Assembly (NCBI GenBank): GCA_030605475.1
Contig: JAUWIG010000043.1
Location: 20,405-84,404 of the forward strand
DNA length: 64,000 nt
From: Planctomycetota bacterium
GTDB lineage: Bacteria > Planctomycetota > Phycisphaerae > Sedimentisphaerales > Anaerobacaceae
Direction: 5' to 3'
Shown: positions 20,056 to 53,164 of the stretch, piece after piece
Layout of the letters: every line of letters begins with the position of its first letter
Numbering within the stretch: the first letter of the stretch is position 1
The notes under the pieces: model-generated
What the model saw: the letters and a program-made list of their open reading frames with translations, nothing else
Databases searched by the model: none
Told to the model about the DNA's origin: nothing
Position numbers and translations under genes: made by a program

Positions 20056-20236
20056 GAATTAAGTATGTAGGCGGCTGATTTGGGTATTTTGTTGTGTGAA
20101 GGTTGTTCACGGCGGTCGTGGACGTAGCTTGTCCGGTAAGTTTCGGCTAAATTTGGAGGGGTAGGGTGTCAGATTTTTCAGCAAAATTGGCCCGGGCGCT
20201 TTGTTCATAGCCAGAGGCGAGGAAGGATACATTCGG

Positions 20237-22477
20237 ATGACGAATCAATCGCATCGCTGCGATAAGGAAGATGCCGTACCGCCGGTAGCGCAGAATGAGC
20301 TTCAGGATGCTGGGCGGCTCGGCTCGAACGGCGCCGACGCGACGGAAACTGATGGTACGAAGACCAACCTATTGTGGGGTGTTCGCGGTCTTCTTGGCTA
20401 TCTCGCTTTTACATGGCTTAGCCTGGTGTGGGTCGAGTTGCTGCTGGCGAGGATGATTTCCCGCTCGATGTTGAACGCCCTCATCCTGTCGCGTTCGGTT
20501 CGAATGACTCTGATGTCAGATGAGTTCCTTGCGTTGGCAGTTGTGGTCGCGGTGGTAGCGACGCCGCTGCTCGTTCTCAGTTACCTCGCCGGCCGTGCGT
20601 TGTCGAATCGAGCTGCCCTGTTGCGGGTAGGTTGGTGTGTGTTGTTCGCTTTGGTGTGGGTATTGCTGTTGTTGTATGCGGCCAGTTGGTTCACGTTCCG
20701 AAGCACCGGTATCTTCCTCGCTACTGAGGGGCTGGTGTTCTTCGCTACCAATTCCGTTCAGTTCCTGCAGCACGTCGCGCACATGGAACCATATCTGGTG
20801 TTAACGGCTCCGCTGGTCGTCTCGGCGGGTGCCCTGGTGCTGATGTGGCTGGTCCCAAAGCTGTTAGCGCAGCTGCGTGGTTGGTGGATGTGGATGTTTA
20901 TCGCCGGTGTCAGCGTGTTGCTGTGCGCATGCGTCTGGTTTTCCGTTGGCGGCGGTATGAGGGTAAGCGGAGAAGACGCGGGTATGCCGGTACTCGACCC
21001 GCACGTGGGTGTGGTTTACACACATGGTGAGCTCTATGCCGATTGCCGTGACGGTCGGACCGGGCCCTTACTGTACCTCTGGGCCGACGTCCGCCGTCGC
21101 TTGTGGAGCGAGGCTGAACCACTGATGGCCAGCGACGACCTGCCGGTCACGTGGCGTCCGATTATCTCAATGGATGAATACTTGCGAAGTGTCGATAGGA
21201 AGCGTATGCATCGATGGAACGTGATATTTATTTTAGTCGAGTCGCTGCGTCCCGACCAATTGCAGGTTTGCGGTGGTCGCCGGGAGGTCATGCCGGCTCT
21301 CGAGGCATTGGCACGCCAGAGCCGCGTCTTTTTGAACCACTACACTCAGTCCAGCCACTCCAATTATGCGGACGTGTGCCCGCTTTCCTCGCATTACCCA
21401 CTGCGCTCCGAGCGGACCCACGTGTACCAGGAGAATCCGACCTACCCCCGCGTCCTGATATACGATGTGCTGAAACAGCTTGGTTATCGCACCGCAATTA
21501 TCTCATCCCAGAACGAGAATTGGGGTGCGATGCTTAACTACATGCAGACCGGCTACCTCGACCACGTGTTTCATTCACGGACGTTCACCGGCCCGACGTA
21601 CGTGCCCCGTGGCGACGCAGGTTTCGAGGCGTTTGTCAAGGGCCAGAAGCGGTCGGGCAAGATTGACGACCGCTTCACCATAGCCGAGGCCATTCGGTGG
21701 ATTGACTCGGTGAAGGACGAGCCCTTTTACATCTATATGAACCTTCAGAGCAGCCACTTACCCTACGAGACGCCGGCCGATTTCCCTCGTCGCTTCGGTC
21801 GCGACAAACTGCCTTTCACCATACGATTCAACAAGTACCCACCTGAAGCAGCGGAACTGGTCAAGGACGAATACTCCAATAGTCTGGCCTATGTGGATTC
21901 GCAGTTGCAGCGACTGTTTGAGCACCTCAAGGAACGAGACCTGTGGGAACGCACCGTAATAGTGGTGAGCGGCGACACAGGCCAGGCGTTCTTCGAGCAT
22001 GGCTTCGCCGCCCACGCCAACATGTTGTTCAACGAAGTAATGCAGGTCCCGCTGGTCATCTGGGCACCAAACCTGCGTCCCGGCGTGGACAGTCGGCCGG
22101 CACAGCATATCGATGTGCCGCCATCGGTGTTCAACCTGCTGGGGCTGCCGCCGCATCCGAGCTTTCAGGGCATCAGCCTGTTCGGGCCCGACCCGAAACC
22201 CAACCGGTCGCTCTACCTGGTGGCTCAGTGTCCACCAGCCCACCAGTTCGCTGTGGTCCGCGGTGACTTCAAGCTTATCTACGATGTGCGTCGGCGACGG
22301 CGATTTCTGCTGAACTTGAAATTCGACCCCGGCGAAACCCGCGACTTCTCCAGAAGTAATCCGGACGTGTTGAAGGAGTTGTCGGTCCGGCTGGACACCT
22401 GGCGCAAACTGCAGCTCGACTACTACCGCAGGATTAATCTTCACAGCCGCTGGTATCCGCCGGCACTCGGCGACTGA
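20237..22477 (+). CDS. membrane-anchored sulfatase-like hydrolase/transferase (LTA-synthase / alkaline-phosphatase superfamily)
   Basis: The N-terminal half is multi-TM. The C-terminal half has NVIFILVESLRPDQL, SGDTGQAF and HANM blocks of the sulfatase/LtaS fold. There is no Cys-x-Pro-x-Arg motif. The start is set at ATG 20237, and 20201 is the alternative. GC content is visibly higher than in the flanks. Confidence 0.75.
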   Translation: MTNQSHRCDKEDAVPPVAQNELQDAGRLGSNGADATETDGTKTNLLWGVRGLLGYLAFTWLSLVWVELLLARMISRSMLNALILSRSVRMTLMSDEFLALAVVVAVVATPLLVLSYLAGRALSNRAALLRVGWCVLFALVWVLLLLYAASWFTFRSTGIFLATEGLVFFATNSVQFLQHVAHMEPYLVLTAPLVVSAGALVLMWLVPKLLAQLRGWWMWMFIAGVSVLLCACVWFSVGGGMRVSGEDAGMPVLDPHVGVVYTHGELYADCRDGRTGPLLYLWADVRRRLWSEAEPLMASDDLPVTWRPIISMDEYLRSVDRKRMHRWNVIFILVESLRPDQLQVCGGRREVMPALEALARQSRVFLNHYTQSSHSNYADVCPLSSHYPLRSERTHVYQENPTYPRVLIYDVLKQLGYRTAIISSQNENWGAMLNYMQTGYLDHVFHSRTFTGPTYVPRGDAGFEAFVKGQKRSGKIDDRFTIAEAIRWIDSVKDEPFYIYMNLQSSHLPYETPADFPRRFGRDKLPFTIRFNKYPPEAAELVKDEYSNSLAYVDSQLQRLFEHLKERDLWERTVIVVSGDTGQAFFEHGFAAHANMLFNEVMQVPLVIWAPNLRPGVDSRPAQHIDVPPSVFNLLGLPPHPSFQGISLFGPDPKPNRSLYLVAQCPPAHQFAVVRGDFKLIYDVRRRRRFLLNLKFDPGETRDFSRSNPDVLKELSVRLDTWRKLQLDYYRRINLHSRWYPPALGD

Positions 22478-23153: not shown

Positions 23154-24098
23154 GTGAAATATCGGCAGGTAAACCCTCAATTGTTCTTTCGTTTTGTTGC
23201 AGCAGTATTGTTGGCTGCCACAATTCTTGCCGGCTGTGCCCCTCAGGTGCAAAAGCCGATGCGAATTTGTCCCGGCGCCGAATCTGTGACCGACGCGTTA
23301 TCTTTGTTGAGGTCGCGCTCACAAAATATAGTGCCGCTGAGAGCTAACGGCCAGTGCCGTTTGCAGTATTATATTGATGGAAAGCCGCATAAAGAAAACT
23401 TTCCCGTGAAACTTTGGATTAATCCCGTTAGAAGTCCCCGCAGGCAGGTGGCAGACGCCGGGCGTTTTACTTCTAACGGGGCCAATCTGTCTGCTCAAGT
23501 TTACCTGCAGGGTGACGTGGCTTTCGACCCAAAGGGGCTTGTTGCAGGCTCGAACGAACGGGAATTTTGGCTGTCAATAAAACCCAAAGAGGTCAGCAGT
23601 TACTGGTGGGGCCGGTGGTCGCAGGCTAATTTCTCTGAAAAGCTGATGTTCAGTCCTGAACTGGTGCTCGAGGCTCTCGGAATCGCTGAAGTCGGCGGTG
23701 CGGAAAATTGGTCCTTGGCAAACGAAGGCGCCTTTGATGTACTTACAAAGCGAGATGGCCGAGGTGCGGTAATCAAAAAAGTATATATCTTTAACTGTGA
23801 CCATCTGGTTTTGAAAATTGAGTATTTTGACACGAACGGCCGGGCTGTAGCTGCTATAGAATTGGGTGAATATAAAGAAGTCTCCGAATGGTTTTCCGTC
23901 CCTGCCGCCATAAAGATTATCAATCGTGTGGCTGACAGTGCGGGAGGCTTAATCAGTATTACTATCAGCTTGAAGTCTGTAAAGTCGGCGCACTTTACCG
24001 AAAAGGCACTGAGACGTCTTTTTACTCGTCCGCAGCCGCGAGGTTTCAAGAACATTTACAAAATCGTCGACGGCAAGATAATTGAACAGCCGCGTTAA
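23154..24098 (+). CDS. hypothetical lipoprotein (possibly LolA/LolB-like fold)
   Basis: Signal peptide with lipobox LAGC. GTG start 4 nt after the upstream stop. It contains an in-frame palindromic element at 23424-23480. Confidence 0.55.
   Translation: MKYRQVNPQLFFRFVAAVLLAATILAGCAPQVQKPMRICPGAESVTDALSLLRSRSQNIVPLRANGQCRLQYYIDGKPHKENFPVKLWINPVRSPRRQVADAGRFTSNGANLSAQVYLQGDVAFDPKGLVAGSNEREFWLSIKPKEVSSYWWGRWSQANFSEKLMFSPELVLEALGIAEVGGAENWSLANEGAFDVLTKRDGRGAVIKKVYIFNCDHLVLKIEYFDTNGRAVAAIELGEYKEVSEWFSVPAAIKIINRVADSAGGLISITISLKSVKSAHFTEKALRRLFTRPQPRGFKNIYKIVDGKIIEQPR
23424..23480. repeat. palindromic element (arms CCCGTTAGAAGT / ACTTCTAACGGG) inside a CDS, 57 nt, in frame
   Basis: 12-bp perfect inverted arms at 23424-23435 and 23469-23480. 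The same arms, extended to 15 bp, recur at 36133-36171. Confidence 0.8.
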
Positions 24099-35844: not shown

Positions 35845-36132
35845 AACAATAAGTCTAAAGCCTGAGTTAATCCGTGTCAAAACAAATTCCCCAAAAAAGG
35901 GCATACACGCCTCGGCTGAGATCACGAAGTCAGCACACACTACAGGGATAGAATAAGCCGGGTAGGGTGGGGCTTGCCACACGCGGTTTTTCTATTTAAG
36001 AAAAGATAGAATTGTCCGGCGCTGCGATTTCGCTTACAATAGTTTTTGGTAAAGAACCGTTGTTGCGGTAATCCTGTGGACCTTGGACAAGATAAGACAG
36101 TTGCCAAGCTAATCTCCCGGCTTGAGGCCGCC

Positions 36133-36171
36133 AGCCCCGTTAGAAGTCGACGACTTACTTCTAACGGGGCT
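36133..36171. repeat. palindromic element, 15-bp perfect arms (AGCCCCGTTAGAAGT / ACTTCTAACGGGGCT), 39 nt
   Basis: Arms at 36133-36147 and 36157-36171 with a 9-nt loop. It is homologous to the element at 23424-23480. Confidence 0.85.
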
Positions 36172-36186
36172 AAGGACGGCGGGGGG

Positions 36187-39100
36187 GTGGTTAAGGCCGA
36201 GGGGACGTGGGGGTCCTTTGCGCCTATGCTGGCGGCTCACATCTCTAAAGAACTCGGCAGGCCGATTTTATACATCTCCCCGTACATCGACGATACCGAC
36301 AGGGTCGCCGATGATTTACTTGTATTTGGGGGCGAAAGAATCGAAGCTTTACCTGCATGGGAGGGCACCGAAGATTTGGCCGACGCCACCGATGAAATCA
36401 GGGCTGAAAGGTTAAGGGTCACGTTGAAAACACTTTCGCACGGGGACAAATTTATTGTCCCGGCACCGATACAGGCACTTTGTCAGCCGATACCAAAGCC
36501 GGAGATTCTGGAAGAGAGCTGCCTGCGATTGCAGGTCGAAAAAACAGTCTCACCCGAAGCGATAGTTAGATGGCTGGTTGATAACGGCTTTGAGCGAGTG
36601 GATAGAATCGACCTGCCCGGCCAGTTTGCGCGTCGCGGTGGAATCGTTGACATTTACGCACCGCTGAGCATCGGAAAAATCCTGTCAGACGACCACCAGC
36701 CGGGCCCCTCCGGCCAGGGCGGTGAGGCGGTCAGGATTGAATTTTTCGGCGACACCATAGAGAGTATCCGCCAAATCAATCTGGATACGCAGCGCTCGAC
36801 CCGGCAGATAGAAAGCATCGGAATAGTTTCGGCGGTGTGCGGGGGCACAACGGAAGAGAGGGAGCTTTTCATAAATATCCTGCCGGCCGATACCATAATT
36901 GTTCTTGAAGAGCCGGTTGACATTGAGGAAGTTGCGAAGGTGTTTCGGGAACGTATCGAGGATGCAGGTCGCCTTTATAACTGGGCCGATATTTATGCGG
37001 CTGCAAGGAAATTTACGCAGCTCCACATTTGCAGATTTGCCGCTTCGGCACCAGGTGATTTTCTTAAGCTGAATATAAAAAGCGCCCAGCGGTTCCAGCA
37101 CAGGGCCGCTTCTTTATGGGCGGGACATAAGGAGGCTTTGGAGCAGTTAGTTCAGGAAGCAGAGCAGGGAAAGACGGTTCATCTTTACTGCGAAAGCCCG
37201 GCTGAAATCAAGCGACTCGGCGAGATTGCAGCAGAGAGCAGCAAAAAGCTGCTGGCAAATTTCAAATTGCTGTTAGGCTTTATTCATCAGGGCTTTGTCA
37301 TAGATTCGCTAAATACAATTGTAATAAGTCATCACGAGTTGTTTGGCCAGTATGTGCTCAGAAGAAGGCAGCGGCCGGTCCGGCCCACCTCGCCGGTGGA
37401 TACCCTCGCCGATTTGCAGCCCGGCGACTATGTTGTCCATATCTCCTACGGCATCGGAAAGTTTTTAGGGATAAAAACCATACAAGAAAAGGGGGCACAG
37501 AGTGAGTATCTTACGATTGAATATGCCGACGGCGTAAAAATCCAGGTATCGGCACGCAATATCGCGCTGGTGCAAAAGTTCATAGGGACAAGTCCGAAAC
37601 GACCGAAGTTGAGCAAGGTAGGCTCAAAAAGGTGGCAGAGGCAGAAGGAAAAGGTTGCAAATGCTGTTCGGGACCTTGCCGACGAACTGCTTGAAATTCA
37701 GGCCAAACGCCAGAGTATGAGCGGCATTGCCTTCGGGGCCGACTCGAGCTGGCAGGCCGAATTCGAAGAATCATTCCCTTACCAGGAAACAGCGGACCAG
37801 ACCACAGCCGCAGAGCAAATCAAGACAGATATGAAAGAAGCTGTGGCGATGGATAGACTGCTCTGTGGCGATGTCGGCTACGGCAAAACAGAGATTGCAA
37901 TGCGCGCGGCCTTCAAGGCGGTTGAAAACGGAAAGCAGGTCGCTATCTTAGTGCCGACAACGGTGTTGTGTGTGCAGCACGGAAGGACTTTCACAGAACG
38001 GTTTGCCGATTTCCCGATTTGTATCGAGGTTCTAAACCGGTTCAGGACGGCAAAGCAGGCAGCCGATATCATCAAACGGACAAAACAGGGGCGGGTTGAC
38101 ATACTGATAGGGACGCATCGGCTCCTGAGCGGCGACGTGGGCTTTAAGGATTTGGGCCTTTTAATAATCGACGAAGAGCAGCGTTTTGGCGTTGAGCACA
38201 AAGAGAAACTCAAAAAGTTGCGCGTCGATGTCGATGTTCTTACAATGACGGCCACGCCGATTCCACGGACATTGCATATGTCACTATTGGGGCTGCGCGA
38301 TATAAGTTCGTTAGGGACTCCGCCATTGGACAGGAGAAGTATAGTAACAACGGTAACGGCCTACAACTCCGAGCTTATCAGAAAAGAGATAATTCGTGAA
38401 TTGAACCGACAGGGACAGGTGTTTTTCGTGCACAACAGGGTCAAGACGATTGAAAAGAAGGCCTGGGAAGTTCAAAAACTCGTTGGTGACGCAAAGGTTG
38501 CCATCGCGCACGGCCGGATGGCAAAGAGCGAGCTCGAAAAAGCGATGATAGATTTTGTGATGGGCAAAACCGACGTGCTTGTCTGCACCACGATTATCGA
38601 ATCGGGCCTGGACATTCCGAACGCAAATACGATTTTTATAGACAGTGCCGACAGGTTCGGCCTCGCAGAGCTCCATCAGCTTCGCGGAAGGGTCGGCAGG
38701 TATAAGCATCGGGCCTATGCATATATGATGCTGCCGGCCTCAAGGTCGATTACACCGGTGGCGGCCAGACGCCTAAAGGCCATTGAAGAGTATTCGCATT
38801 TAGGTGCCGGTTTTAGAATTGCTCTAAGGGATTTGGAAATCCGAGGGGCGGGCAACATATTAGGAGCTGAGCAGTCAGGCCATATTCAGCTGGTGGGCTA
38901 TCAGATGTATTGCGATTTATTGGGTGATGCCGTTAGAAAATTAAAGAATCAGCCCATCGAGCCGATACCGACAGCGAGTTTGGATTTAGGTTTTGCCACA
39001 TATATACCCAAAAATTACATACCGTCCGACAGGCACCGGATGGACGTTTACCGCAAAATTGCCGTTGCGAGAACAGGCGACGACTTAAAACAGGTCGCCG

Positions 39101-39399
39101 CCGAGTTGGCCGATGTATATGGCACGGTGCCGGATGAGGTCGAGCTGCTGATGGAATTGGCTCACCTGCGAATCGAGGCAGGCAGGTGGGACATAAAAAG
39201 TATCGTTGCCTCGGGCCAGGATTTGGTCTTTTCATTTGCAAAAGACGCAGGCGGCAAAGCTGATTCTTTATTTGCGACAGCGGCGGGCAAGGCAAGGTTC
39301 GCCGACTACAAGACAGCGTATTTGCGTTTGCCGAAGAATTATTTCGAGCCGAGAACACTCATAACCGTCTTGCAAAAAATTTTCAACACGACTTCATAG
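36187..39399 (+). CDS. mfd: transcription-repair coupling factor
   Basis: DVGYGKTEIAMRAAF (Walker A), LLIIDEEQRFGV (DEEQ), the TRG/RIG region and a helicase C-terminal block. The start is uncertain. GTG 36187 lies just after the palindromic element, and TTG 36046 is the ORF-track alternative. Confidence 0.85.
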   Translation: MVKAEGTWGSFAPMLAAHISKELGRPILYISPYIDDTDRVADDLLVFGGERIEALPAWEGTEDLADATDEIRAERLRVTLKTLSHGDKFIVPAPIQALCQPIPKPEILEESCLRLQVEKTVSPEAIVRWLVDNGFERVDRIDLPGQFARRGGIVDIYAPLSIGKILSDDHQPGPSGQGGEAVRIEFFGDTIESIRQINLDTQRSTRQIESIGIVSAVCGGTTEERELFINILPADTIIVLEEPVDIEEVAKVFRERIEDAGRLYNWADIYAAARKFTQLHICRFAASAPGDFLKLNIKSAQRFQHRAASLWAGHKEALEQLVQEAEQGKTVHLYCESPAEIKRLGEIAAESSKKLLANFKLLLGFIHQGFVIDSLNTIVISHHELFGQYVLRRRQRPVRPTSPVDTLADLQPGDYVVHISYGIGKFLGIKTIQEKGAQSEYLTIEYADGVKIQVSARNIALVQKFIGTSPKRPKLSKVGSKRWQRQKEKVANAVRDLADELLEIQAKRQSMSGIAFGADSSWQAEFEESFPYQETADQTTAAEQIKTDMKEAVAMDRLLCGDVGYGKTEIAMRAAFKAVENGKQVAILVPTTVLCVQHGRTFTERFADFPICIEVLNRFRTAKQAADIIKRTKQGRVDILIGTHRLLSGDVGFKDLGLLIIDEEQRFGVEHKEKLKKLRVDVDVLTMTATPIPRTLHMSLLGLRDISSLGTPPLDRRSIVTTVTAYNSELIRKEIIRELNRQGQVFFVHNRVKTIEKKAWEVQKLVGDAKVAIAHGRMAKSELEKAMIDFVMGKTDVLVCTTIIESGLDIPNANTIFIDSADRFGLAELHQLRGRVGRYKHRAYAYMMLPASRSITPVAARRLKAIEEYSHLGAGFRIALRDLEIRGAGNILGAEQSGHIQLVGYQMYCDLLGDAVRKLKNQPIEPIPTASLDLGFATYIPKNYIPSDRHRMDVYRKIAVARTGDDLKQVAAELADVYGTVPDEVELLMELAHLRIEAGRWDIKSIVASGQDLVFSFAKDAGGKADSLFATAAGKARFADYKTAYLRLPKNYFEPRTLITVLQKIFNTTS

Positions 39400-51415: not shown

Positions 51416-53164
51416 ATGAAGGGTTTTTTTAATAAATTGCTGAGGGTCGACCTTTCTAAGCGGAGTTTCGGTTATGAAGACATTGGCGATGAGGTTTTGC
51501 GCCAGAGCTTAGGGGGCAAGGGATTAGGCTGCTATCTTCTGATGAAAGAGAATCCGCCGGGAGTTGACCCCTTTTCACCGGAAAACATTTTTGTAATTGC
51601 TACAGGGCCGGTGACGGGGACGAAGATGTGGAGCCAATCAAGGTTTGGAGTTTATTCGAAAAGCCCGGCTACCGGGGGCTACGGTGAGTCGTATTGCGGG
51701 GGGGAACTTGCGCCAAAGATTAAAGGCTGTGGTGTTGATGCTATTATTCTGCAAGGTAAATGCGAGGGCCTTTCATTTCTTGTGATTGACGAGAATGGGG
51801 CTTCTTTTCAGGATGCTTCGGGCCTTAAAGATAAAGATACCGCCGAGAGCGAAGAATACATCCTGGCACGAGCACCTGAAGAAGCCGGAGCTATGACAAT
51901 AGGGCCTGGGGGTGAAAACAGAGTGGCATTTGCCTGTATAAAAATAGATAGATGGCGCAGCCTCGGCCGGGGCGGTATGGGTGCTATCCTCGGCTCAAAG
52001 AATGTAAAGGGGATTGTATTTGCCGGTACAAAACAATGCGAGATAGAGGACGAGCAGCTGCTGAGGAAGGTCATTAAGGACGTAGCCAAAAAAGGGAAAG
52101 AGTCACCGGTCACAAAAAAGTATCAGCAATTAGGGACACCGATGCAGGTTGCGGTGACCAATAAGCAGAATTGTTTTCCGACGAGATACTGGCAGTCCGG
52201 TCACTTTTCAAAATGGGAGAATCTGTCGGCTGACTATATGCAAAAGAATTTCGAGGTCAAGGCGAAAGGGTGTCCGAACTGCTTTTTGAACTGTACGAAG
52301 CACTCGCGCATCAAACAGGGTCGTCATAAAGGGCTGGAATTAGATGGGCCGGAGTTTGAAACGATATACGCTATCGGCGGACTTAATGCTATCGACAGCT
52401 TAGAGGAAGTGGCCTGGCTGAACGTTATTTGTGATGAGCTGGGAATCGACACGATGAGCGCGGGCAACATTTCTTCTTTTGCCATCGAGGCCTGCAAAAG
52501 AGGTAAAATTGATTTTGAGATAGATTATAACCAGCCGGACCGCGTGGCTGAGCTTTATAGACTTATCGCTAAGAATGAGGGTGTAGGGGCGTTATTAGGT
52601 AAAGGGATAAAACACGCGGCGAAGGAACTGGGGCTGGAAGATATCGCCATACACGTGAAGGGCCTGGAGCCGGCAGGTTTCGACCCGAGAGTGCTTAAAG
52701 GTATGGGGCTTACCTACGCCGTTGCCGCCCGGGGGGCGTGTCACCTGCGGGGGACATTCTACAAAGCGGAACTGTCCGGAGAGATGGACAAAAATCAAAT
52801 TGAGGGCAAAGCCAGGCTGATGGTAGATTATGAGGACCGGGCGGCACTTTTTGACTCGTTGATTTTGTGCAGGTTTTATAGAGATTTTATTCTGTGGGAC
52901 GAGCTGGCGAGTATCATCAAGGCCACAACGGGTATGGACCTTAGTAAAAGTGAGCTTGAGGTGCTGGCAAACAAAATTACGCAACAGAGCCGTGAATACA
53001 ACAGACGAGAAGGGCTGGACAGCTCGAAAGACACATTGCCGAGGAGATTTCTGACCGAGGCGACCGAGGAGGGTGCAAAGCTGTCTGGGCAGGAACTTGA
53101 GATTATGATAAAAGAATACAACGATATCCGAGAATCGAGAGAGCGAGAAATTAGAAGTGTCTAA
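51416..53164 (+). CDS. aldehyde:ferredoxin oxidoreductase (AOR) family tungsto/molybdo-pterin enzyme
   Basis: N-terminal LRVDLSKRSF..GGKGLG..ATGPVTGT pattern. 4Fe-4S ligand motif CPNCFLNC (CxxCxxxC) plus distal LILCRF. Confidence 0.85.
   Translation: MKGFFNKLLRVDLSKRSFGYEDIGDEVLRQSLGGKGLGCYLLMKENPPGVDPFSPENIFVIATGPVTGTKMWSQSRFGVYSKSPATGGYGESYCGGELAPKIKGCGVDAIILQGKCEGLSFLVIDENGASFQDASGLKDKDTAESEEYILARAPEEAGAMTIGPGGENRVAFACIKIDRWRSLGRGGMGAILGSKNVKGIVFAGTKQCEIEDEQLLRKVIKDVAKKGKESPVTKKYQQLGTPMQVAVTNKQNCFPTRYWQSGHFSKWENLSADYMQKNFEVKAKGCPNCFLNCTKHSRIKQGRHKGLELDGPEFETIYAIGGLNAIDSLEEVAWLNVICDELGIDTMSAGNISSFAIEACKRGKIDFEIDYNQPDRVAELYRLIAKNEGVGALLGKGIKHAAKELGLEDIAIHVKGLEPAGFDPRVLKGMGLTYAVAARGACHLRGTFYKAELSGEMDKNQIEGKARLMVDYEDRAALFDSLILCRFYRDFILWDELASIIKATTGMDLSKSELEVLANKITQQSREYNRREGLDSSKDTLPRRFLTEATEEGAKLSGQELEIMIKEYNDIRESREREIRSV

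Follow-up and report, generated by a model that had tools for sequence, protein, structure and literature searches.

The DNA analysed here is a 64,000-nucleotide stretch (the window) of a bacterial genome from the order Sedimentisphaerales (Phycisphaerae, Planctomycetota), and the subject is a short palindromic element, two copies of which (A and B) lie inside protein-coding genes of the window. The genome, labelled G000, is a 2.40-Mb metagenome-assembled genome (MAG) of 58 contigs, with 47% G+C and 91% completeness. The window corresponds to C7:20405-84404 of this genome, and related genomes carry labels such as G015 and G427. The 12-mer CCCGTTAGAAGT was found exactly four times in the window, at 23424-23435 (+), 23469-23480 (-), 36136-36147 (+), and 36157-36168 (-), while the chance expectation for an exact 12-mer is ~0.008 in 64 kb on both strands. 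The original prediction, made from the sequence of the window, had reported two palindromes, and the 12-mer search and the translation of open reading frames (ORFs) found both of them at the stated positions and within coding sequence. Both copies are in frame within long ORFs, and the open frame of copy B extends over 1118 codons.

Two palindromes inside a lipoprotein gene and mfd

Copy A (23423-23481) has a 12/13-bp stem and a 33-nt loop. Its host is an ORF on the + strand (23154-24098) coding for a 314-aa lipoprotein with the lipobox LAGC. The protein is weakly LolA-like, its match to Pfam LolA_like being under the cut-off, and an orthologue was found in 36 of 41 relatives. The left inverted end TCCCGTTAGAAGT (23423-23435), the loop (23436-23468), and the right inverted end ACTTCTAACGGGG (23469-23481) are bordered by TTAA on the left (23419-23422) and CCAA on the right (23482-23485). 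Comparison with the empty sites of relatives, which read TGAA, identifies TTAA as a diverged left copy of the target, and protein and DNA alignments with orthologues identify CCAA as the right copy. The empty sites read ..TGG xTG AAT CCG|CCG GCT.. in ~26 relatives, and the corresponding ~26 proteins read KLWxNP|PAEIYLQGD, with 21 residues added at the junction in G000 (the PVRSPRRQVADAGRFTSNGAN region). In other words, an element of 59 nt and a 4-nt duplication make up 63 nt or 21 extra codons, and not the 57 nt or 19 codons given earlier from the sequence of the window. In an AlphaFold2 model of the lipoprotein (mean predicted local distance difference test, pLDDT, of 76), the insert forms a loop whose residues 94-111 have a pLDDT below 50. 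The model thus places the insert as a disordered loop in a beta-sheet turn between strands 77-91 and 114-122.

An element is also present at the identical lipoprotein site of G013, which belongs to another genus, where it sits on a TGAA target; closer relatives have no element at this site. The G013 element shares with G000 the T-variant of the first base. Its loop is 61% identical to that of copy A, which is less than the 76% identity between the loop of copy A and that of a paralogous G000 copy at C38:34367. The G013 element may have been inherited or may represent a second independent hit.

Copy B (36133-36171) has a perfect 15-bp stem and a 9-nt loop. It lies in mfd, the gene of the transcription-repair coupling factor (36076-39399, + strand), which was delimited by translation and by aligning the N-terminus with those of five orthologues. 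The parts of the copy are the left inverted end CCCCGTTAGAAGT (36135-36147), the loop CGACGACTT (36148-36156), and the right inverted end ACTTCTAACGGGG (36157-36169). The left flank CCAG (36131-36134) is a diverged duplication, and the right flank is CTAA (36170-36173). Element and flank together account for 39 nt or 13 codons (SPVRSRRLTSNGA). The insert is missing from all five relatives examined, G015, G004, G017, and G013 among them. Two placements had been offered for copy B, one within an N-terminal extension of mfd and the other just upstream of a GTG start at 36187. The Mfd orthologues begin with M-[E/D/N]-L-G/R-x-D/N-K and align with GTG 36076; therefore, a start at GTG 36187 is excluded and the copy is inside the gene. 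The copy sits between RLEAA and GGVVKxEG, in the conserved N-terminus of the orthologue-aligned protein.

A possible decayed third copy, 60 nt long, is located at 20272-20331 (+) of the window in the N-terminal region of an ORF at 20201-22477. It is a weak candidate (right arm 10/12, left arm 6/12) with a peptide, DAGRLGSNG, that resembles DAGRFTSNG of copy A.

A dispersed hairpin family with duplicated target sites

The two window copies belong to a family that has ~80 members in the genome, not two. The 9-mer CCGTTAGAA has 72 occurrences on one strand of G000 and 62 on the other when ~9.5 are expected, and genome-wide pairing of left and right ends gave 80 elements on at least 40 contigs. 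Each side of an element carries 13 conserved bp, CCCCGTTAGAA[G/A]T ... A[C/T]TTCTAACGGGG, with end variants CCCCGTTAGAAGT or ..AAT, and the interior is 3-36 nt in most copies. The cores range from 29 to 62 bp, with a small number of nested or longer copies extending to ~170 bp. Measured from CCGTT to AACGG, the copies fall into length classes of 58 (22 copies), 55 (9), 31 (8), 28 (6), and 25 (6) nt. The ends are 84-92% identical between copies (mean pairwise 0.84-0.92), and in the 58- and 55-nt classes the loops are only ~35-38% identical. Some small subgroups have a loop in common, as with the 9-nt loop of copy B, which is found again at C49:14600 and C31:50241, in the opposite orientation at C24:12771, and in the relative G015. 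All copies fold as strong hairpins with a mean of -20 kcal/mol and a median z of -4.3, and an Rfam search with copy A returned no family.

The exact pattern was present in 13 of 40 near relatives, namely in 10 of the 24 that belong to the same family and in two sister families. It was present in seven of 401 sampled genomes of the class, G000 included; six of these seven belong to the same family, and none was found among the ~336 class genomes outside the order. Within G000, end pairs 125-420 bp apart were all nested or adjacent copies, and pairs 400-4000 bp apart enclosed ordinary genes only. A self-BLAST of G000 for multi-copy insertion sequences (ISs) at contig ends gave nothing useful. 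A hot spot at C3:48000-79000 holds at least 12 copies as well as a truncated nuclease gene (71537-71707), and a nested cluster in it (52700-53024) reaches into the first codons of dnaE.

Evidence that the elements were inserted comes from their flanks. The four bases outside the CCCC and GGGG of the ends are identical in 37 of the 80 copies and match at three of four positions in 14. At other offsets 0-1 perfect matches were found, and random positions gave 0.6%. The target reads Y-(T/A)-(A/T)-R, the sites being usually of the form T/C-N-N-A/G, and the commonest flanks are TTTA, TAAA, TGAA, and TTCA. More direct evidence came from orthologous genes without the element. In TrpE, relatives read ..CGC G TCAG C GGA.. 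where G000 reads ..CGT G TCAG [62 nt] TCAG C GGG.., and the proteins are 89-92% identical with a difference of exactly 22 residues. Clean extra residues relative to orthologues were likewise found in TsaD (22), in ProB, the E2 acyltransferase, and the lipoprotein (21 each), and in Mfd (13). Among six compared hosts the duplication is perfect in TrpE only; elsewhere the right tetranucleotide is nearer to the single copy of the relatives. Wherever the tetranucleotide can still be read in orthologous empty sites it is present once, which confirms that the duplication is real.

The TsaD and Mfd loops, which are variable in relatives, showed no remnant of the element there. In G004 (L072), the TsaD loop corresponding to the site of the G000 element (C9:4237) contains an unrelated heptamer-repeat palindrome, (TCGTCGC)n..(CACGAGA)n, and it seems that this loop takes several kinds of junk insertion.

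Short high-copy palindromes tied to one small nuclease-type gene are also known as REP/REPIN sequences with RAYT (PMC3733652). One alternative is that the family consists of palindromes of this type, spread by a RAYT (IS200-like Y1) transposase, and G000 does encode two weakly Y1_Tnp-like proteins (C24:17767 and C12:10735). However, REP sequences have GTAG or CGTC heads, no target duplication, a mostly extragenic location, and a Y1 HUH transposase, whereas the present copies have duplications, carry neither head, and are intragenic in half of the cases, and the Y1 loci L040 and L041 are without the element. A RAYT origin is thus very improbable.

Length and reading frame of copies inside genes

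About half of the copies (40) lie in long ORFs, defined here as 190 aa or more, and many of these ORFs are conserved. The hosts include ribosomal protein S5, DnaE, the E2 acyltransferase, a GH57 enzyme, the glycogen debranching enzyme (GDE), TrpE, HypF, TsaD, RibD, a CobA/HemD fusion, ComEC, ProB, MoeA, and RsmD. The insert is often located within a Pfam domain match or splits it, and domains of either kind were recorded for S5, E2, DnaE, GDE, TrpE, HypF, TsaD, RibD, HemD, and ComEC. How are so many insertions into genes tolerated? The answer would lie in the length and the frame of the element. When insert length is counted as the element plus one 4-bp duplication, it is a multiple of three in 64 of the 80 copies (33, 36, 39, 63, or 66 nt). 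The bias is stronger in long ORFs (38/40) than in short ORFs (26/40). Furthermore, the ends contain TAG and TAA in one of three frames only, on either strand. As a result, a copy in a gene can add 11-22 residues without breaking it. The copies in long ORFs use the two stop-free frames, PVR[S/N]..[T/I]SNG in 25 cases and PLE[V/I]..[L/F]LTG in 15, on either strand; an example of a predicted insert peptide is PVRSPRRQVADAGR. Eight loci in relatives follow the same rule, with multiple-of-three copies in long ORFs and other lengths outside them, and seven of the eight have perfect duplications. A further idea, that the loops are pre-adapted to stay open in all four permitted frames, was unsupported, since intergenic copies gave 2.17 observed compared to 1.89 shuffled.

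Several copies near the 5' ends of genes overlap the start codon or adjoin it. In the copy at C3:78139, the junction GGGA|TGAAG remakes the ATG of a KdsB-like gene, and at C53:37547 the arrangement ATGAA|..|TGAAG leaves an upstream in-frame ATG and a remade GTG.

The shared PVRS..TSNG peptide of the two window copies could in principle mean that a conserved peptide motif, or a chance palindrome, is being observed instead of mobile DNA. The copies, however, are found in either orientation, use two frames, and also lie in non-coding DNA; they are missing from orthologues and have duplicated flanks, so that the probability of this explanation is negligible. The multiple-of-three bias would arise from the purging of copies of wrong length or frame from genes. 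The insert peptides would be translated and tolerated as surface loops, and the elements would be selfish and near neutral.

The original prediction had likened the in-frame palindromes to Rickettsia palindromic elements (RPEs). In the descriptions drawn on here, RPEs are dispersed palindromes that lie in frame in unrelated housekeeping genes and add a peptide, and that also occur between genes (Ogata et al. 2000, 2002; PMC10969869, PMC3184786). The present family resembles them in that many in-frame insertions into genes are tolerated and intergenic copies occur too. Both window inserts are missing in the orthologues of related genera (the G013 lipoprotein excepted), and the genome-wide census is biased to multiples of three. 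Therefore, the RPE-like reading of in-frame colonisation of coding sequence is supported. Going by those descriptions, RPEs are set apart by their length of ~100-150 bp, as compared to 33-66 bp here. The present family also differs in having 13-bp ends, a 4-bp duplication, and a coding full-length relative, and in belonging to the Planctomycetota. It represents a second, much cleaner case of selfish DNA in protein genes, outside Rickettsia, in a free-living anaerobic planctomycete, and the length and frame rules of the 13-bp ends are a candidate answer to how palindromic repeats enter genes harmlessly. A practical consequence is that copies inflate or split domain hits in automated annotation, as with TrpE, TsaD, and HemD here, and masking them as insertions is advised.

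Nuclease-coding units and the candidate mover

The 4-bp duplication and the size of the family had escaped the original prediction, and so had the full-length relatives that code for a nuclease. The first such unit was found in G427 by a pattern search for two ends 240-300 nt apart. It spans 280 bp (G427:C10:33568-33843) and reads TGAA|CCCCGTTAGAACC ... GGTTCTAACGGGG|TGAA. Its one ORF has 87 codons (95 from an ATG in the flank) and gives a Pfam GIY-YIG match (E = 3e-15) that covers residues 1-68 of the 87. At the orthologous gene junction of G000, TGAA is present once, where stop and start overlap as GTGA, and this junction is the empty site of the unit, indicating that the G427 unit itself was inserted with a 4-bp duplication. 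A tblastn search detected homologues of the nuclease in 52 of 101 family genomes. Ten more units of 268-315 bp were identified in other genera. Their flanks are of the T-N-A-A type, and their inverted ends, which read CCCCGTTAGA.., CCCTGTTAGAG.., or CCCCGTGAGATA, change in step with the protein. Units with CCCCGTTAGA.. ends and one GIY-YIG ORF are present in G427, G445, G012, G010, G433, and G439. The ORF runs through the unit from end to end in 85-95 codons, (M)NPVR ... LTG, and is terminated by TGA or TAA from the duplicated TGAA or TAAA on the right. In two units, an ATG or GTG formed with the left TGAA serves as the start. Two units of G475, L181 and L204, are 66% identical and have identical 8-nt flanks (cactttta / tgaaccct), and they may be nested in another repeat.

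The nuclease has 122 relatives of 73-128 residues (mostly 83-100) that are 49-100% identical to it. The few named relatives come from MAGs labelled Desulfobacteraceae, Verrucomicrobiaceae, Minisyncoccia, Paceibacterota, and Yanofskybacteria, and homologues in Desulfobacteraceae, Verrucomicrobiaceae, and Patescibacteria are 57-89% identical. The nearest solved structures are the UPF0213 proteins 1zg2 (E = 2e-4) and 1ywl (4e-3). In an alignment of 26 homologues, Tyr16, Gly18, Arg26, His30, Glu62, and the G-K-R-Y of a KTGMGKRY-type motif are invariant, and the catalytic-type Tyr, Arg, His, Glu, and Asn are invariant or near-invariant. Many of the 26 end with ..LTG, and four start with MNPVR, MDPVR, or MNPLR; termini of these types indicate that the homologues are bounded by like ends. 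In two of the 26, protein P0081 being named here, the nuclease gene itself contains a miniature copy in frame (PVRS...TSNG). One of the two lies on a contig of a groundwater metagenome (L210:657-727), and the arms of its miniature, CCCGTTAGAAGT/ACTTCTAACGGG, are identical to those of the window. A unit of a Minisyncoccia MAG has TTTA/TGAA flanks and lies between tmk and glyA; at GGGA|TGAA an ATG is remade.

The palindromes are short and gene-less, have terminal inverted repeats, have target duplications for which empty sites exist, are dispersed in many copies, and share their ends with a coding element. [quoted passage not shown] To judge by eye from their sequence, the AT-rich miniature loops look like the leader and start codon of a unit (..GAGG..ATATG..) joined to its tail (..AAAGGGAAG), that is, like internal-deletion derivatives. 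In this respect, and in being short and multi-copy with inverted ends and a duplication, the family is like the bacterial IS-derived MITEs (Correia/NEMIS, ERIC, RUP, Nezha; PMC10969869, PMC3184786). It differs from them in a parent shorter than 320 bp that codes for a GIY-YIG nuclease and not for a DDE transposase, in smallest copies of 29 bp, and in the strong multiple-of-three rule.

Which protein moves the miniatures? In one model, the nuclease would cut the target with a 4-nt stagger and/or cleave at the hairpin ends, after which host repair and ligation would complete the move. It is possible, though we propose it tentatively and hold it slightly short of even, that this GIY-YIG nuclease of 85-95 residues is the sole element-encoded protein needed for moving, which would make the ~270-bp units a new class of prokaryotic transposon and the multiple-of-three miniatures a general, cross-phylum source of new loops on the surface of essential proteins. 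A literature search of incomplete coverage found no paper on an element with terminal inverted repeats and target-site duplication whose only gene is a GIY-YIG nuclease. If the nuclease is the mover, the element would be a transposon type outside the current IS classification, its units would be among the smallest self-contained transposons, and the Ssn nucleases described below would be linked to genome-wide repeat expansion. With the precise insertion sites, the empty sites, and a gene that may mobilise the copies, questions about new protein loops and the spreading enzyme become open to testing.

Several observations weigh against the reading of the palindromes as miniatures moved by the nuclease. 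The left flank is TTCA in seven copies regardless of the right flank, which a simple duplication model does not predict. To our knowledge, no strand-transfer chemistry is attributed to such a nuclease alone. All that G000 itself retains of the nuclease gene is a truncated copy at C3:71537-71707, which covers residues 26-82 and whose right end is degenerate, and G017 has 13 exact miniature copies and no nuclease hit. A unit with inner ends exactly like those of the G000 copies (..GAAGT, ..GAAAT) was not found, the nearest reading ..GAACC. The loops of the GC-rich subfamily are ~35% identical to one another, and their descent from one unit is not demonstrable. Finally, it is from frame and length that we infer translation of the inserts.

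The TTCA-left copies include C3:24683 (E2) and C55:18141 (ProB), plus five others. The E2 copy has TTCA..TGAA flanks, an inverted pair that lengthens the palindrome, and its empty site has one TGAA. The TTCA flanks may be explained if two central mismatches are corrected when the hairpin stem extends into the duplication. Since the assembled 91% of G000 holds only the truncated gene, the G000 copies may be immobile or may be moved by an unassembled copy.

Another possibility is that an ordinary DDE transposase, missing from the fragmented assemblies, acts in trans and the GIY-YIG unit is a mere passenger between like ends. A 4-bp duplication and ends starting with CC are typical of several DDE families (IS5, IS701, IS1380) and fit this idea. 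Moreover, IS1380-type transposases are encoded in 27 of 61 family genomes, and IS copies are often lost from MAGs. However, the sole DDE_Tnp_1 IS of G000 (C18:13731-14246, 333 aa) has 13-bp ends, TGCTCTGTAGAAA, unrelated to the family, and the IS1380-type elements of relatives have the ends CCCGCATTTCTCAC. The CCGTTAGAA ends were found at none of ~40 transposase loci. A piggyBac-type domain (PF13843) was found in none of the 61 genomes, a result to be read with the silence of the same model in control genomes. The nuclease ORF, on the other hand, fits the ends and the duplication, with its NPVR.. start and its LTG followed by a TGA stop, and variation in the ends goes along with variation in the protein. 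Taken together, a DDE transposase acting in trans is unlikely. Transposases with the family ends were sought with PF01609 (G000 and five relatives), IS1380 PF13701 (the 61 genomes), PF13843, and Y1_Tnp, and none had these ends. In the same way, no transposase between family ends was found that would correspond to the DDE ISs with 4-bp duplications (IS5, IS1380, piggyBac-like).

The closest parallel in gene content is Ssn, a single-domain GIY-YIG nuclease of single-stranded DNA with hairpin repeats on both sides of its gene, and the authors remark on the likeness of this arrangement to an IS (Chenal et al., Nat Commun 2025, PMC11893778). Here, too, a small single-domain GIY-YIG nuclease is accompanied by inverted hairpin-forming repeats that are also scattered in the genome. 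It could then be argued that hairpins and nuclease form a host-serving, domesticated system like Ssn and its NTS repeats, in which the hairpins are kept as a nuclease substrate, for example in the control of recombination or DNA uptake, and the copies in coding regions arise as a by-product. The Ssn repeats number in the hundreds and their domestication is suggested by the authors (PMC11893778), and the ends of the present family are indeed much better kept (86%) than its loops (35%). Nevertheless, the layout is related but not the same, as a single hairpin encloses the gene between its two arms here and two complete hairpins enclose it in the Ssn case. NTS repeats are rarely in genes (2%), and neither duplications nor empty sites are reported for them (PMC11893778), whereas about half of the present copies are in genes and 4-bp duplications with empty sites are found. 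The SRM consensus HGTCWY is also missing from the consensus ends, since neither the CCCCGTTAGAA.. ends nor their complement have a GTC head; one variant copy (C31:45734, CCGTCAGAAGT) contains GTC. Furthermore, many hairpins exist without an intact nuclease in G000 and G017, insertion sites differ between genera, and units and copies are at unrelated loci, each with a fresh duplication. A host-serving role is, on this evidence, quite improbable, and a mobile element with miniature copies is the preferred reading. Rickettsia is among the repeat-rich carriers of Ssn-related motifs (Chenal et al., PMC11893778), and by analogy RPEs may belong to the same world as the repeats linked to GIY-YIG nucleases.

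Other small GIY-YIG genes of G000 were considered as the parent of the miniatures and rejected, because they belong to a different subfamily near tRNA genes and are without the family ends. Three of them (C19:14539-14757, C42:3273-3455, and C48:26308-26487) code for proteins of 77-104 aa, and two of the three adjoin tRNA-like sequence. They are flanked by repeats of the GTCCYGAGC...GTCGAAGGG type, and not by CCCCGTTAGAA ends, and may constitute a second small mobile family.

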